From sequence record PZ295659.1: DNA of 64,000 nucleotides. One strand, given 5' to 3'. The translations under genes and the position numbers were made by a program. The DNA is from a phage. The notes beneath the pieces are model-generated. The model was not told the origin of the DNA, ran no database searches, and saw nothing but the letters and a program-made list of their open reading frames with translations. Shown piece after piece: positions 2,506 through 9,096 of this stretch; positions within the stretch are counted from its first letter, which is position 1, and the number at the start of each line of letters is the position of its first letter.

Positions 2506-3630
2506 ATGGAAAAATTTATGGCAAGGTTTGGACAGGGATACGTCCAAACGCCGTTTTTATCGGAAAGCAATTCAGTTAGATTTAAGCTAAGTATAGCGGG
2601 TTCATGCCCGCTTTCAACAACTAATCCGTATATTTTGTTCCAAGACGAGCCTTTAGGGTTGCAGTCTTTTGGTATTGGACTAAATGTTAGGGTGATAAAT
2701 CCGGAAAATGGAACTATAGTTGATAGTAAATTATACAATTTTGCGCCTACAAATAATGCAACTTCAGCTGCATTTATTTCGTTTGTTAATACATACGCAG
2801 ATAATTTCATTTTCGCATTTATTTCTAATAACAAATTTAATTTGCCGCCAGAAATAATTGAATGGTTTAAAGCTGCTGGGAGTTCAGTTATACCGTCAAT
2901 TGAAGTTGCTAGTCTTGTTGATATTTCATATTCAGCGTTTTATGTTTCAGGTAAAAATACTATTGCATTAGAACACATAAAATACAGTAATAAGAAAACA
3001 ATTTCTGATTACGCAACTCCATTAGATATTGTATATGACTCTATTGCTGATATAGGTGCTACCGGCTATCCTAGACGTACATATGAAGCTCTAGAAACGT
3101 TTTTATCTCCTGTTGGAAGAACTAACAATGAAATAAAAAGGATGCCTACATCATCCCTTGTTACTCCTATCGCAAACTATGGATTAAAGCCTACGGATTT
3201 TCTTTATTTGAAATTTCAATTAACGGCTGATGAAGAATTATTAGAGGAAGGAACCACAAGACTTTCAATTCGTTTCTTTAAGTCTCCATCTAGCTCTCCT
3301 ATATCATCTAAAGATATAAACTTTGATGGAACTGCCGGGGAGTGGAAGCTATATGAAGAATACGTTGAAATACCGGCTGAAGCTGATGGCTTTACAGTAT
3401 ATTGTTACCGTACGGCCTCAGTCGGTCAAGGTGGGCTAAGAAATGTTATTTTCACTGAAGTATCATGTAACGGAAGTATAGCAAAACCAGCCGAGTTTGG
3501 TATAAACGGTATTCGTGCTAATTACATTGATGAATCATTAACCGGTAATGATATAATGGACTTGCCTACTCAGTTATCTAACGACACAGGTAAGGTATTT
3601 GGGCAGGAATTTAAAGAGTACACAGAATAA
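2506..3630 (+). CDS. 35: Tail fibre hinge connector gp35
   Basis: 374 aa; N-terminus MEKFMARFGQGYVQTPFLSESNSV matches remembered T4 gp35; SD aagagg before ATG; synteny. Confidence 0.85.
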   Translation: MEKFMARFGQGYVQTPFLSESNSVRFKLSIAGSCPLSTTNPYILFQDEPLGLQSFGIGLNVRVINPENGTIVDSKLYNFAPTNNATSAAFISFVNTYADNFIFAFISNNKFNLPPEIIEWFKAAGSSVIPSIEVASLVDISYSAFYVSGKNTIALEHIKYSNKKTISDYATPLDIVYDSIADIGATGYPRRTYEALETFLSPVGRTNNEIKRMPTSSLVTPIANYGLKPTDFLYLKFQLTADEELLEEGTTRLSIRFFKSPSSSPISSKDINFDGTAGEWKLYEEYVEIPAEADGFTVYCYRTASVGQGGLRNVIFTEVSCNGSIAKPAEFGINGIRANYIDESLTGNDIMDLPTQLSNDTGKVFGQEFKEYTE

Positions 3631-3689: not shown

Positions 3690-4346
3690 ATGGCCGATTT
3701 AAAAGCCGGAAGTACAGTTGGTGGTTCCGTCATATGGCATCAAGGCAATTTTCCTTTAATGCCAGCTGGCGACGACATTCTATATAAAACATTTAAATTA
3801 TACACTGAATATAACAAGCCAAAAGCGGCTGATAACGATTTCGTATCTAAAGCAAATGGCGGGACATATCTCAAAAAGGTAATCTTTAACGAAGGTGTTG
3901 CAGTCAAAACAGCAGATGACCAAACGAATGGTATTTTTTCTGGTGGTGGTGACGCCGCGACATTCGACCAAACAAACATGGATATTGTTTCGTGGTATGG
4001 TATTGGGTTTAAAACATCTCAAGGTACAGGTGAAAGAACTGTTGTAATTGATACTCGCACCGGTAATATAAGTTCTAAAGGCGTTATTGAAGCATCTCAA
4101 TTCAGAGCCACAACGTTAGCACCTTTAAATAATTACGACCTTACTCGCAAAGATTATGTTGATAGTCAAATAAATACAGTTAATGCTAATGCAAACAGTC
4201 GTGTACTCCGTTCAGGAGATACGATGACCGGCGCGCTAACCGCCCCAAATTTTTTCTCACAGAATCCTGCATCTCAACCATCGCATGTTCCACGATTTGA
4301 CCAAATTGTTATTAAGGATTCTGTTCAAGATTTCGGCTATTATTAA
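3690..4346 (+). CDS. 36: Long tail fibre distal connector gp36
   Basis: 218 aa; MADLKAGSTVGGSVIWHQGNFPL... and C-terminal ...SQPSHVPRFDQIVIKDSVQDFGYY match remembered T4 gp36. Confidence 0.9.
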   Translation: MADLKAGSTVGGSVIWHQGNFPLMPAGDDILYKTFKLYTEYNKPKAADNDFVSKANGGTYLKKVIFNEGVAVKTADDQTNGIFSGGGDAATFDQTNMDIVSWYGIGFKTSQGTGERTVVIDTRTGNISSKGVIEASQFRATTLAPLNNYDLTRKDYVDSQINTVNANANSRVLRSGDTMTGALTAPNFFSQNPASQPSHVPRFDQIVIKDSVQDFGYY

Positions 4347-4354
4347 GAGGACTT

Positions 4355-7300
4355 ATGGCTACTTTAAAACAAATACAATTTAAAAGAAGCAAAACTGCAG
4401 GAGCACGTCCTGCTGCTTCAGTATTAGCCGAAGGTGAATTGGCTATAAACTTAAAAGACCGTGTACTTTTTACCAAAGATGACCAAGGAAATATTATTGA
4501 TCTGGGTTTTGCTAAAGGTGGTAGTATTGACGGGAATGTTATTCATACTGGCAATTATAACCAGACTGGCGATTATACTTTAAATGGCACCTTCACTCAG
4601 ACAGGTAATTTTAATTTAACTGGTATTGCTCGAGTAACTCGCGATATTATTGCCGCCGGGCAGATTATGACCGAAGGCGGAGAACTTATTACAAAAAGTT
4701 CAGGTACAGCACATGTTCGTTTTCATGATTCAGCTGATCGTGAACGTGGCATTATTTACGCACCGGCTAATGATGGATTAACTACGCAAGTAGTTAATAT
4801 CCGCGTTCAAGACTACGCCGCTGGTGATGAAAGCACCTATGCATTTTCAGGCAGTGGTCAATTTACTTCACCTGAAGTATCGGCATGGAAATCTATGTCA
4901 ACTCCTCAGATTTTGACTGACAAAGTCATTACAGACGGGAAGAAGGCCGGTGATTATGACATCTATTCATTAGCAAATAATAATTCTAACACAGATAAAA
5001 ATAATTTACGTGTCGTACGTACCGACCCAGCGGCCGCAATGCTCCATGAAATTTGTGAAAATAACGGTATCAGTTGGTATTCCGGTTCAACCCCTACTGA
5101 TTATATGTTGTCTTTTGCTTATTCCGGTGGTTTTCAAGCAGGTCATTCGATTGCAGTAGGTATGGAATCAGGGCCTTTGACATATTCAACCTTAGGTAAA
5201 GGTTCTATTGTTCTTGGTGATAATGATACTGGGCTAAAATGGCATCAGGATGGATATTATTTCAGCGTCAATAATGGAACGAAAACATTTTTATTTAGCC
5301 CTAGCGAAACAACTAGCCTAAGAAAATTTGTAGCTGGATATTCTACTAGCGGAACCGATTTAACGACTCCTCCGACAGAAAACTACGCATTAGCCACTGT
5401 TGTTACTTACCATGATAATAACGCGTATGGAGATGGTCAGACTCTTTTAGGATATTATCAAGGCGGTAATTATCATCACTATTTCCGCGGTAAAGGTACC
5501 ACAAACATTAATACTCATGGCGGTTTGTTAGTGACTCCTGGTAATATTGATGTTGTTGGTGGTTCGGTTAATATTGACGGCCGCAACAATGCATCTACTC
5601 TGATGTTCAGAGGAAATACAACAGGATGGAGTTCAGTTGATAATATGACTATCAGCGTTTGGGGTAATACCTTTACTCATATTGATAGCGTCCGTAAAAA
5701 CGTAATGGAAATATCTGATGCCACTAGCTGGATGAGCTATATTCAAAGACTTACTACTGGTGAAGTAGAAATGAACGTCAATGGTTCATTTGAATCATAC
5801 GGTGTTACTGCTGGAAATAGTGGAGTTCACACAACAGGCGAAATTTCATCTGGAGCAGTGAATGCTCTTCGTATTTGGAACGCAGATTATGGAGCCATTT
5901 TTAGACGTTCAGAAGGAAGTCTTCATATTATTCCAACTGCTTATGGTGAAGGTAAACATGGTGATATCGGTCCACTTCGCCCGTTTAGTATGGCTTTAGA
6001 TACCGGTAAAGTTACTATTCCAGATTTACAATCAAGTTATAATACGTTTGCTGCTAACGGTTATATTAAATTTACTGGTCATGGCGCAGGCGCTGGTGGT
6101 TATGACATTCAATATGCTCAAGCGGCTCCTATTTTCCAGGAAATTGATGATGATGCTATAAGCAAATATTATCCTATTGTTAAACAGAAGTTTTTAAATG
6201 GTAAAGCCGTTTGGTCTTTAGGTACTGAGATTAGTTCAGGTACATTCGTTATTCATCATCTGAAAGAAGATGGTTCACAAGGCCATACGTCTCGTTTTAA
6301 TCAAGACGGTACTGTTAACTTCCCGGGTAATGTTCTGGTCGACGGTGATATTAACATGAAAGGCGTGATGACTTTTGACGCCGGACGTTTAGGATCACGA
6401 GATTATTTTAAATTTAACCATTGGGGTGATAGTAATAATGCTCGTGATAACATCATCCAGTTAGAAGATAGTCAAGGCGCTCATTTTTCCACTGAACGTA
6501 CTTTAGCGACAGGTGCAATTAAAACTCGTTTCTTTGGCGAAACATTTACTGATGGTACATTATACCTAAATCAGATGAATAATAGCTCTGAACGATTCCA
6601 TATCAATAATTGGGGAAATTCAGAAGCTGGTCGCGCGGCAGTGATGGAAGTCGGTGATTCCAAAGGTTATCACTTCTATACTGAACGCAGGACAGATAAC
6701 AGTTTGAATTTTGATGTTGGTGGCAATTTTACTGTGCATGGACCTAGCGGGATCACTATCAAAAACTCTGCTGGCGCTCGCCACATCTGGTTTAGAGATG
6801 ATAGCGATGCAGAAAAGGCTGTTATCTGGGCTACAGATGATGGTATTTTACATATACGAAATAATCATGGGGGTCCATTTAGTCATCACTTCCAGGGTGC
6901 AATGATTCTAGCGGGAGAGCGTGTTCCATATAATAGTGAATACGCTCTTATCCGTGGTAATATTTCCGGTGGTGCATGGGTAGACTGGCGAGATCGTCCG
7001 GCTGGATTGTTGGTAGACTGTCAGGACTCACGAAATCAAGCATATAACATTTGGAAAGCTACTCATTGGGGCGAACAGCACATTGCGGCGATGGGTGTTC
7101 ATGCTGGTGGCGGTAATCCTCATGTTGTATTGCATGTTGGTGGGAGTGATTATGCATTTGGATTTAACGGTGATTTTACTGCTGGCGCTGCTGTATATTG
7201 TAACGACGTTTATATTCGTTCTGACCGTCGTCTGAAAATTAATGTTGAAGACTACGAAGAGAATGCGGTAGATAAGGTAAATAAACTCAAAGTTAAAACC

Positions 7301-7573
7301 TATGATAAAGTTAAATCTCTTTCTGACCGCGAAGTTATCGGCCATGAGATTGGTATTATCGCACAGGATTTGCAAGAAGTATTACCGGAAGCTGTTAGCA
7401 CTTCTAGTGTCGGATCTCAGGATAACCCAGAAGAAATTTTAACAATTTCTAACTCTGCTGTGAACGCGCTTTTAATTAAGGCCATTCAGGAAATGAGCGA
7501 AGAAATTAAAGAATTGAAAACGCCTCTCTTTACTAAAATTGCTCGCAAAATTAGTAAATATTTTAAATTCTAA
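4355..7573 (+). CDS. 37: Long tail fibre distal subunit gp37 with C-terminal intramolecular chaperone domain
   Basis: 1072 aa; N-terminus MATLKQIQFKRSK...AASVLAEGELAINLKDR as in T4 gp37; C-terminus carries SDRRLKINVEDY and GIIAQDLQEVLPEAV. Confidence 0.9.
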   Translation: MATLKQIQFKRSKTAGARPAASVLAEGELAINLKDRVLFTKDDQGNIIDLGFAKGGSIDGNVIHTGNYNQTGDYTLNGTFTQTGNFNLTGIARVTRDIIAAGQIMTEGGELITKSSGTAHVRFHDSADRERGIIYAPANDGLTTQVVNIRVQDYAAGDESTYAFSGSGQFTSPEVSAWKSMSTPQILTDKVITDGKKAGDYDIYSLANNNSNTDKNNLRVVRTDPAAAMLHEICENNGISWYSGSTPTDYMLSFAYSGGFQAGHSIAVGMESGPLTYSTLGKGSIVLGDNDTGLKWHQDGYYFSVNNGTKTFLFSPSETTSLRKFVAGYSTSGTDLTTPPTENYALATVVTYHDNNAYGDGQTLLGYYQGGNYHHYFRGKGTTNINTHGGLLVTPGNIDVVGGSVNIDGRNNASTLMFRGNTTGWSSVDNMTISVWGNTFTHIDSVRKNVMEISDATSWMSYIQRLTTGEVEMNVNGSFESYGVTAGNSGVHTTGEISSGAVNALRIWNADYGAIFRRSEGSLHIIPTAYGEGKHGDIGPLRPFSMALDTGKVTIPDLQSSYNTFAANGYIKFTGHGAGAGGYDIQYAQAAPIFQEIDDDAISKYYPIVKQKFLNGKAVWSLGTEISSGTFVIHHLKEDGSQGHTSRFNQDGTVNFPGNVLVDGDINMKGVMTFDAGRLGSRDYFKFNHWGDSNNARDNIIQLEDSQGAHFSTERTLATGAIKTRFFGETFTDGTLYLNQMNNSSERFHINNWGNSEAGRAAVMEVGDSKGYHFYTERRTDNSLNFDVGGNFTVHGPSGITIKNSAGARHIWFRDDSDAEKAVIWATDDGILHIRNNHGGPFSHHFQGAMILAGERVPYNSEYALIRGNISGGAWVDWRDRPAGLLVDCQDSRNQAYNIWKATHWGEQHIAAMGVHAGGGNPHVVLHVGGSDYAFGFNGDFTAGAAVYCNDVYIRSDRRLKINVEDYEENAVDKVNKLKVKTYDKVKSLSDREVIGHEIGIIAQDLQEVLPEAVSTSSVGSQDNPEEILTISNSAVNALLIKAIQEMSEEIKELKTPLFTKIARKISKYFKF

Positions 7574-7579
7574 CAACAA

Positions 7580-7597
7580 GGGGGAAATGCCCCCTTT
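7580..7597 (+). terminator. GC stem-loop (GGGGG-AAAUG-CCCCC) plus UUU after the gp37 stop
   Basis: 5-bp G/C stem with 5-nt loop and trailing TTT between gp37 and gp38; function (terminator or RNA stabiliser) not established. Confidence 0.35.
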
Positions 7598-7609
7598 GGA
7601 GTATAAATT

Positions 7610-8389
7610 ATGGCAGTAGTTGGAGTTCCTGGCTGGATTGGAAGTTCAGCCGTAAATGAAACGGGCCAGCGCTGGATGAGTCAAGCAGCTGGTCAATTAA
7701 GATTGGGTGTTCCTTGCTGGATGAGTCAATTTGCAGGTCGCTCAAGAGAAATTATTCACACACTTGGAGCAGACCATAACTTCAATGGTCAATGGTTCCG
7801 AGATAGATGTTTTGAGGCAGGTAGTGCACCTATAGTGTTTAATATCACCGGAAATTTAGTATCATATAGTAAAGATGTTCCTTTATTCTTTATGTATGGC
7901 GATACACCAAATGAATATGTTACTTTGAATATTCATGGTGGAGTTCATATGTGGGGACGAGGTGGTAACGGTACTGTAAACGGAAACCCGGGCACAAATG
8001 GCGGCGACGTAATCCAAAATGATATTGGCGGAAGACTTCGTATTTGGAACTATGGCGTTATTGCATCAGGTGGTGGCGGTGGCGGTGCAGTGTCATTACA
8101 GAATAGCTGGGCGCCAAATGCTACAGCAGGGGGCGGTGGTGGTAGACCATTTGGCATCGGCGGTGGCGGCGTTAATTGGCCGGGTGGTAATGCTAGTTAT
8201 GACTCCCCAGGCGGTGCCGGTTACACTTCCCAATTCGGCGGAGGCAATGGCGGTGATGCTGGAGGTCGTGGCGGAGATGGATGGGGTAATCACTTATCTA
8301 GATCTGGTGGTGGTGCTCCTGGCAGAGCAGTATTCGGAAGTTCACCGTCATGGGGTGCTACAGGCACAATCTACGGCTCCTGGATTTAA
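7610..8389 (+). CDS. 38: T2/T6-type tail fibre adhesin gp38 with glycine-rich motifs
   Basis: 259 aa; N-terminus [22 protein letters not shown]... and several poly-Gly blocks characteristic of T2-type gp38; SD ggag before ATG. Confidence 0.85.
7954..8323 (+). repeat. Simple-sequence GGN (glycine codon) tracts within gp38
   Basis: Runs such as ggtggtggcggtggcggt and ggcggtggcggc encoding [20 protein letters not shown]; locally GC-rich in an AT-rich genome. Confidence 0.7.
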
Positions 8390-8415: not shown

Positions 8416-8436
8416 TTGATAAATGGGAGAGGTAAT

Positions 8437-9096
8437 ATGGCAGCACCAAAAGTATCATTTTCGCCTAGTGATATTTTATTTGGGTTGCTAGACCGCATTT
8501 TCAAAGATAACGCCTCTGGAAATATTCTTATTTCAAGAGTTGCTGTTGTAGTTCTTTTGTTCCTAATGGCACTAATATGGTACAAAGGGAATATTTTTAT
8601 GGATTATTATGTGAGGTCTAAATATGATACTTACACAGAAGTAATTCAAAAAGAAAGAAATACACGATTTGAATCTGCGGCTTTAGAGCAACTACAAATA
8701 GTCCACGTCACATCAAGGGCGGATTTTAGTTCGGTGTATTCTTTCAGACCTAAAAATCTAAATTATTTCGTCGACCTTATTGCGTATGAAGGTAAGTTAC
8801 CTAGCACAGTAACTGAAAAATCTATGGGAGGATTTCCTGTTGATAAAACGACAGCAGAATATTCGGTCCATTTAAGTGGACTTCACTTTACTTCTAAAAC
8901 AGATTTTGCTTTCTTACCTACCAAATCAAAAACTCCGGAACTGGCGTATATGTATAGTTGTCCTTACTTCAATTTGGATAACATATATGCGGGAACTGTT
9001 TCTATGTATTGGTATAAGGGGTCGGATGTGTTAAATGAAGAACGCTTGGCTGCAATATGCAACCAAGCAGCAAGGATATTAGGGCGGGCTAAATAA
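8437..9096 (+). CDS. t: Holin t
   Basis: MAAPKVSFSPSDILFG..., single TM segment, C-terminus AARILGRAK matching remembered T4 holin; ATG at 8437 preferred over the upstream TTG at 8416. Confidence 0.9.
   Translation: MAAPKVSFSPSDILFGLLDRIFKDNASGNILISRVAVVVLLFLMALIWYKGNIFMDYYVRSKYDTYTEVIQKERNTRFESAALEQLQIVHVTSRADFSSVYSFRPKNLNYFVDLIAYEGKLPSTVTEKSMGGFPVDKTTAEYSVHLSGLHFTSKTDFAFLPTKSKTPELAYMYSCPYFNLDNIYAGTVSMYWYKGSDVLNEERLAAICNQAARILGRAK

Follow-up and report, generated by a model that had tools for sequence, protein, structure and literature searches.

Gene 37 of this T6-like coliphage raises the question of how the distal long tail fibre ends, and which protein supplies its receptor-recognising tip. 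The gene (4355..7573, + strand) is an open reading frame encoding the precursor of the distal subunit (gp37; 1072 aa, 116.7 kDa), and lies in the window, the 64,000-nucleotide stretch of sequence record PZ295659.1 that we analysed. Its product matches PHROG 1699, 'long tail fiber protein distal subunit' (E=0), and the g37-g38 DNA is 94.4% identical to g37-g38 as annotated in phage ChristianSchoenbein, the closest phage, under whose name our search found no literature. An antisense ORF at 7028..7375 is without a Pfam match and was rejected as a gene.

The fibre does not end as it does in T4. The N-terminal 635 aa of gp37 are homologous to T4 gp37, and the similarity stops there. In Pfam, T4 gp37 carries Collar (PF07484) and Phage_fiber (PF03335) domains and lacks an S74 domain, whereas neither Collar nor Phage_fiber is found in the window gp37. 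No HxH motif occurs anywhere in the protein, and the T4 gp37 tip chain is not among its PDB matches at E<=0.01. The original prediction, that a T4-like His-rich gp37 tip is lacking here, is thus borne out.

Instead, the extreme C-terminus of gp37 (aa 956-1072 of 1072; 7220..7570, +) is an intramolecular chaperone (IMC) of the Peptidase_S74 type, a 117-aa, 13.2-kDa domain predicted to cleave itself off after trimerisation. The Pfam model Peptidase_S74 (PF13884) matches aa 956-1014 with E=1.3e-14; the match spans profile positions 1-57 of 58, and its score of 54.6 bits far exceeds the curated cut-off of 22. The domain had been placed at 7217-7573, with a length of about 118 aa; its presence at the end of gp37 stands, but its start has to be moved, as 7217-7219 encode Arg955, the Ser codon occupies 7220-7222 and the released fragment would comprise 117 aa. 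Within it, GIIAQDLQEVLPEAV (aa 1000-1014; 7352-7396, +) is the motif conserved at the core of the S74 domain, and G1000, A1003, L1010, P1011, E1012 and A1013 are invariant across an alignment of 33 homologues (A1).

Comparison with solved structures gives the same picture. S16 gp37 (6F45_A) matches the gp37 C-terminus with E=1.8e-12, YCRDLNVSSDRRIKK being aligned against YCNDVYIRSDRRLKI, and a PDB search with a profile of 33 sequences matches the 8JOV tail fibre, the ICA domain of MyRF (7DC3) and the GA-1 IMC (3GUD). The IMCs of K1F and T5 were not found at E<=1 by PDB sequence search with the 118-aa fragment or by the 33-sequence profile. They were recovered solely by fold comparison, in which the predicted IMC fold agrees with solved IMC domains; the proposed alignment with the K1F chaperone consequently holds for the fold and fails for sequence and profile searches. 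The IMC is 72% identical to that of T6, with which it shares the C-terminal tail, and about 44-45% identical to that of T2. Judged by sequence, it is T6-type, not T2-type, which narrows the T2/T6 arrangement originally proposed: the Pfam architecture is identical to that of T6 and T2 gp37 has a similar end (NVYIR-SDIRLK), but the IMC itself is specifically that of T6 (72%) and not of T2 (45%).

We then considered where the precursor would be cut. Homologue alignments identify Ser956 (7220..7222, +) as the predicted nucleophile and residue 1 of the released domain, and Lys961 (7235..7237, +), at Ser+5, as the predicted general base; both lie in SDRRLKINVEDY (aa 956-967; 7220-7255). S956, D957 and K961 do not vary across alignment A1, in which identity falls to 28%, and Ser956 and Lys961 are also invariant when the window sequence is aligned with T6, T2, S16, GA-1 and 8JOV. 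The predicted cleavage at a Ser with a Ser/Lys dyad therefore survived the conservation check. The crystallised, released GA-1 IMC (3GUD) begins at the equivalent Ser (SDER), and the spacing of +5 equals that of Ser1264/Lys1269 in T5, in which the scissile bond is Thr1263-Ser1264 (PMC4690869). Upstream folding-sensor residues are known from T5 (Arg1250/Asp1239, supplied by a neighbouring subunit) and from endoNF; the gp37 region upstream of the IMC is not alignable by sequence with T5 or endoNF.

The residue at P1 of the predicted scissile bond is Arg955 (7217-7219), the last of the pentapeptide DVYIR (aa 951-955; 7205..7219, +), which also occurs in T6 and takes the form NVYIR in T2. DVYIR would be the last strand of mature gp37, and is predicted to form a flat trimeric tip docking the gp38 N-terminus. 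According to PMC7917993 and PMC7289586, the last 113 residues of S16 gp37 are auto-cleaved at DLNVS^SDRRIKK (2018), exposing the gp38 docking surface. Cleavage of gp37 in Yersinia fPS Tequatroviruses was predicted in 2021 at DVYIR^SDGRLKI by alignment to the S16 site (PMC7917993). C-terminal proteolytic processing of T2 gp37 goes back to Drexler, Riede & Henning 1986, as cited in PMC3157838, and autoproteolytic IMC release is reported for S16, T2/T6, T5 and K1F. By analogy, we infer that gp37 of the window phage is cleaved at Arg955-Ser956, giving a predicted virion form of aa 1-955 (4355..7219, +; 103.5 kDa), its end being set by the aligned cleavage site.

The tip itself is probably supplied by the product of the next gene. 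Gene 37 ends at 7573 and is followed by gene 38 (7610..8389, +), encoding a T6-type tail fibre adhesin of 259 aa, and by t (8416..9096; Phage_holin_T, E=5.8e-89). gp38 matches the Pfam families GP38 (E=3.9e-83, 279 bits) and Gp38_N (E=1.4e-20, 73.5 bits), each with a cut-off of 25 bits, as well as PDB 9V85 gp38 (E=1.2e-73) and, over aa 5-259, the S16 gp38 chain 6F45_D (E=1.5e-47). The separate downstream adhesin of the original prediction is thus confirmed at the level of protein family. Only one position in the first 51 aa differs from T6 gp38. The translation has W9, W22 and W37 near its N-terminus and the glycine runs GRGGNG, GGGGGG, GGGGG and GGGNGG; the organisation published for gp38 is an N-terminal attachment domain with conserved Trp, then Gly-rich motifs between variable segments (PMC3157838, PMC7917993). 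These matches point to gp38 as the receptor-binding adhesin of the virion. That gp38 supplies the tip had been deduced from the presence of the chaperone domain; the conclusion stands but the deduction does not, because T5 pb1 has an IMC and yet binds its receptor with its own tip. It is the presence of the gp38 gene itself that argues for a gp38 tip.

The spacer between the two genes contains a hairpin, GGGGG-AAATG-CCCCC (7580..7594, +), detected by a stem scan. On its 3' side, GGAG at 7598-7601 lies 8 nt before the g38 ATG. The equivalent element in the T2 record X04442.1 is annotated as a stem-loop/possible terminator beside the g38 ribosome binding site. Our scan did not call the hairpin as a + strand terminator, because only three T follow the stem, and we regard it as no more than a conserved element of the spacer.

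Taken together, this analysis suggests that the locus is very probably the usual distal long-tail-fibre module found in a T6-type Tequatrovirus, with a self-released IMC and a gp38 tip; its directly supported elements are the identity, position, conserved catalytic residues and fold of the domain, the family of gp38 and the absence of a T4-type tip. In the corresponding model, gp37 would be synthesised as a 1072-aa precursor in which Ser956 to Phe1072 form the IMC. By analogy with K1F endosialidase, T5 pb1 and S16 gp37, three IMCs would come together and start trimerisation of the distal fibre at its C-terminal end. Correct folding of the trimer would then allow Ser956, with Lys961 as its activator, to attack the Arg955-Ser956 bond, so that the 13-kDa domain is released and the trimer is left with an exposed tip whose last residues are DVYIR. 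Into this tip gp38 may plug its N-terminal, Trp-containing domain, leaving its glycine-rich C-terminal domain to act as the receptor-binding adhesin.

Other readings of the S74 domain fare poorly. The idea that short motifs look alike by chance, without a functional domain behind them, has a single point in its favour, namely that the original prediction leaned on two such motifs; against it stand a full-length Pfam match, tblastn matches in 1595 phage records and consistent fold matches, and we give it no credence. The domain might instead stay uncleaved in the mature fibre as a structural or receptor-binding cap, gp38 being merely an assembly factor, as is implied by GenBank records of some close relatives that label gp38 'long tail fiber assembly catalyst/chaperone'. 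These labels, however, carry over T4 gene names, and gp38 does not resemble the T4 gp38 chaperone (BLASTP best E=2.1), belonging rather to an adhesin family whose S16 member has a solved structure in complex with the cleaved gp37 tip. With Ser956 and Lys961 invariant, and with experimental cleavage reported in S16 and processing in T2/T6, we regard an uncleaved cap as extremely unlikely.

The last 17 residues of the IMC raise a different possibility. This basic amphipathic tail, TPLFTKIARKISKYFKF (7520..7570, +), is specific to T6-type IMCs: it occurs in T6 and in the gp37 of 225 phage records, whereas T2, S16, the remaining 32 sequences of alignment A1 and the T5 and K1F chaperones all lack it. 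It has a net charge of +5 and a hydrophobic moment of 0.63, against 0.28 for shuffled sequences, 0.7% of which reach 0.63. A frameshift artefact relative to a variant ending in AKLG (P0001) was rejected, the tail being kept in T6 and the 225 records. Its amphipathicity and conservation would fit a second role for the released 13-kDa fragment, which would not simply be discarded but might, for example, associate with membranes or gate gp38 loading. However, the AF2 model runs the C-terminal helix on through the tail, as expected of a longer IMC coiled coil, other IMC subtypes work without it, and no link was found between the tail and any other process. We therefore consider such a role very unlikely.

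For annotation, the module reading implies that virion gp37 should end at Arg955, and that gp38 should be described as a host-range determinant, not as the 'assembly catalyst' of many T-even records. In host-range engineering, the exchangeable unit would be gp38 plus the DVYIR docking tip, while the IMC would be needed for fibre folding. The current understanding of T-even fibres is unchanged by these findings: the combination of IMC and gp38 is ordinary, and already described for T2/T6/S16-type phages.

Among known systems, the K1F endosialidase CIMCD (3GW6), the T5 pb1 IMC (4UW8) and the GA-1 neck appendage IMC (3GUD) have 9-21% sequence identity and different cargo domains, such as the beta-helix stalk of a sialidase or a receptor-binding tip shaped like a bullet; mature T5 pb1 binds the receptor with its own tip and receives no gp38-like cap. 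The myelin regulatory factor ICA domain (7DC3) belongs to a eukaryotic membrane-bound transcription factor, an unrelated context. The S16 gp37-gp38 tip complex (PDB 6F45; Dunne et al. 2018) has a homologous gp37 C-terminus/IMC and gp38, but its 113-aa IMC is about 34% identical to that of the window, lacks the basic tail and follows DLNVS at P5-P1 in place of DVYIR. T2 gp37 (X04442.1) ends ...NVYIR^SDIRLKSN..., with g38 directly after a hairpin; its IMC lacks the T6-type tail and its gp38 has a different N-terminal subtype (subtypes per PMC3157838). The gp37 of Yersinia phages fPS-2/-65/-90 has a near-identical predicted site with the same published interpretation (PMC7917993), and the C-terminal 24 residues of fPS-65 gp37 are identical to ours; the fPS phages have G against R at Ser+2, and other parts of gp37/gp38 differ. 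T6 (MH550421) shares the gene order 34-35-36-37-38-t, an identical Pfam architecture (Gp34_trimer + Peptidase_S74 in gp37; Gp38_N + GP38 in gp38), the cleavage context DVYIR^SD.RLKIN and the C-terminal tail TP(L/F)FTKIARKIS(K/N)YFKF. Even so, IMC identity to T6 is only 72%, gp37 has 1072 aa in the window against 994 aa in T6, and the two phages differ in the part of the gp37 shaft immediately preceding the tip, as well as in the hypervariable segments of gp38; receptor specificity may therefore differ.

The final 118 codons of g37 plus the stop (7217-7573) had been predicted to encode a chaperone domain of the peptidase S74 type, and a Pfam search bore this out: Peptidase_S74 ('chaperone of endosialidase', PF13884) matches end to end over aa 956-1014 of gp37 (E=1.3e-14; 54.6 bits, cut-off 22). 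Both peptides quoted in the original prediction are present, SDRRLKINVEDY at aa 956-967 and GIIAQDLQEVLPEAV at aa 1000-1014. Its domain start moves by one codon: 7217-7219 encodes Arg955 and the Ser codon lies at 7220-7222 (that of Lys961 at 7235-7237), so the domain proper comprises 117 aa. By tblastn, the chaperone fragment matched 1595 phage records, spanning T5-like L-shaped fibres, Streptococcus hyaluronidase/PblB proteins and records annotated 'peptidase_S74'; given these matches and the end-to-end Pfam hit, a chance motif match was rejected. Homologues were gathered with aa 880-1072 as query, and all listed matches carry PF13884. Across 33 aligned homologues, with identity down to 28%, S956, D957, K961, G1000, A1003 and L1010-A1013 are invariant. 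Among solved structures, the nearest relative is the distal subunit of the S16 long tail fibre (6F45_A, E=1.8e-12), aligned across YCRDLNVSSDRRIKK in the window and YCNDVYIRSDRRLKI in S16. The profile of the 33-homologue alignment matches 6F45 at E=3.6e-19, as well as 8JOV (a tail fibre), 7DC3 (the ICA domain of MyRF) and the intramolecular chaperone (IMC) of the GA-1 neck appendage, 3GUD, whose crystallised, already released chain starts exactly at the aligned SDER. In terms of fold, the proposed comparison with the K1F chaperone gave a positive result; the sequence profile built from this alignment did not recover the K1F and T5 domains.

The T5 fibre protein pb1 is cleaved between Thr1263 and Ser1264, the Ser being activated by Lys1269; S1264A blocks the reaction, and an Arg from a neighbouring chain ties it to correct trimer folding (PMC4690869). 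The same Ser...Lys(+5) geometry is found in window gp37. In S16, the final 113 residues of gp37 are reported to be auto-cleaved between both serines of DLNVS^SDRRIKK (^, scissile bond), baring the surface where the N-terminal tryptophans of gp38 dock, and DVYIR^SDGRLKI of the Yersinia Tequatroviruses fPS-2, -65 and -90 has been aligned to this site, with cleavage predicted after DVYIR (PMC7917993). The window site, DVYIR^SDRRLKI, differs from the fPS site by one residue; on this basis a cut is predicted that leaves mature gp37 at 103.5 kDa (aa 1-955) and releases a 13.2-kDa fragment. We infer both this cleavage and its dependence on trimerisation.

The T6-type IMC terminates in a 17-residue basic amphipathic tail, TPLFTKIARKISKYFKF (7520-7570), with a net charge of +5 and a hydrophobic moment of 0.63, compared to 0.28 for shuffles. 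In 225 phage records, T6, RB14, RB32 and fPS-65 among them, gp37 keeps this tail, which is missing from the aligned sequences of T2, S16 and other, more distant S74 chaperones. As the terminal helix runs on through the tail in a structure model, it most likely merely extends the chaperone's coiled coil; a second role would be speculative and of low probability.

The separate adhesin gene anticipated downstream is indeed present, with gp38 matching Pfam GP38 (E=3.9e-83) and Gp38_N (E=1.4e-20), the solved S16 gp38 (6F45_D, E=1.5e-47) and a second solved gp38 (9V85, E=1.2e-73). Comparison with T4 revealed no similarity to its gp38 chaperone (best E=2.1). The tip is likewise not of T4 type: in T4, gp37 has a Collar and a Phage_fiber domain but no S74 domain, whereas a Pfam search of window gp37 found neither Collar nor Phage_fiber, the protein contains zero HxH motifs, no T4 gp37 tip chain figures among its PDB matches, and it aligns to T4 gp37 over its first 635 residues only. 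The proposed contrast with T4 holds. A gp38-supplied tip, though, does not follow from the IMC: in T5, pb1 possesses one and yet binds its receptor through its own matured tip (PMC4690869); the real evidence for a separate adhesin is the gp38 gene.

Between the two genes, the spacer 7580-7609 holds a GGGGG-AAATG-CCCCC hairpin followed by TTT, GGAG (7598-7601) and TATAAATT (7602-7609). The last of these adjoins the g38 ATG and resembles the T4 late-promoter box, TATAAATA. The T2 record labels its counterpart of this hairpin a possible terminator, one that overlaps the ribosome binding site of g38.

One 303-aa homologue, P0007, fuses a gp38 N-terminus to a gp37 tip and IMC (L004:6001-6912, on contig ABMKHH010000064.1 of E. 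coli assembly GCA_031535085.1; also L005), and its phage surroundings are not T-even. Its first ~157 aa correspond to a T6-type gp38 N-terminus (Gp38_N and part of GP38), and the remainder to the gp37 tip strand and S74 chaperone (...VYCNDVYIR-SDRRLKINVEDY...AKLG). It sits directly downstream of a 1140-aa fibre with its own terminal T6-type DVYIR-SD...KYFKF chaperone; an HK97-like protease-capsid fusion is encoded upstream, while the downstream genes specify an 809-aa protein and a distal tail protein resembling T5 pb9. The fused order was found in no phage record as a single tblastn piece. Simple assembly collapse is an unlikely origin, because no DNA repeat of at least 40 nt is common to both chaperone copies. 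A gp38-like protein carrying its own trimerising chaperone is unexpected, as 6F45 contains three gp37 chains but one gp38 chain.

The window comes from a Tequatrovirus (T-even) genome: across its replication-gene region (20000-44000), identity to many T4-like phages of Escherichia is ~97.7%. At its left end sits the long-tail-fibre cluster, with the 3' portion of gene 34 (an open frame spanning 2-2497), g35 (2506..3630), g36 (3690..4346; Pfam Phage_T4_gp36), g37 (4355..7573) and g38 (7610..8389), followed by holin gene t (8416..9096; Phage_holin_T, E=5.8e-89). The g37-g38 block (4355-8389) diverges more than this backbone, as is typical for mosaic fibre genes, and looks mosaic against it (94.4% at best among phage records, to phage ChristianSchoenbein, versus 97.7%). 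Its closest matches vary by part: phage SQ17 for the chaperone fragment (100%) and Shigella phage ESh27 for gp38 (99.2%). Within gp37, a Gp34_trimer-like domain (PF21446) occupies aa 447-545 (5693-5989), and aa 414-556 also match solved gp34 structures. A WG(D/N)S...D(S)(Q/K)G(A/Y)HF(S/Y)TER module occurs twice, at ~aa 687-720 and ~aa 750-779 (6413-6700); both copies are similar to T4 gp37 aa 483-517, and their repetition points to putative duplicated shaft modules. The hinge protein gp35 matches Pfam ILEI (interleukin-like EMT inducer, PF15711) barely above threshold (aa 58-131; 30.2 bits, cut-off 27; E=6.5e-07).

The S74/gp38 finding is correct, yet already known: a near-identical cleavage motif is in print (PMC7917993), and the S16 IMC is given as a textbook example alongside those of K1F, phi29 and T5 (PMC7289586). 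The proposed T2/T6 arrangement stands as an arrangement; the IMC itself is of T6 type and not of T2 type (72% and 45% identity, respectively). T2 gp37 (X04442.1) ends ...NVYIR-SDIRLKSNF..., with g38 beginning right after the annotated hairpin. T6 (MH550421) has a Pfam architecture identical to the window's, a gp37 C-terminus reading ...DVYIR-SDSRLKIN...TPFFTKIARKISNYFKF, and a gp38 differing at 1 of 51 N-terminal residues. Trojet et al. define subtypes in which each gp38 N-terminus goes with a matching gp37 C-terminus (PMC3157838); by that classification the fibre-tip module of the window is T6-type.
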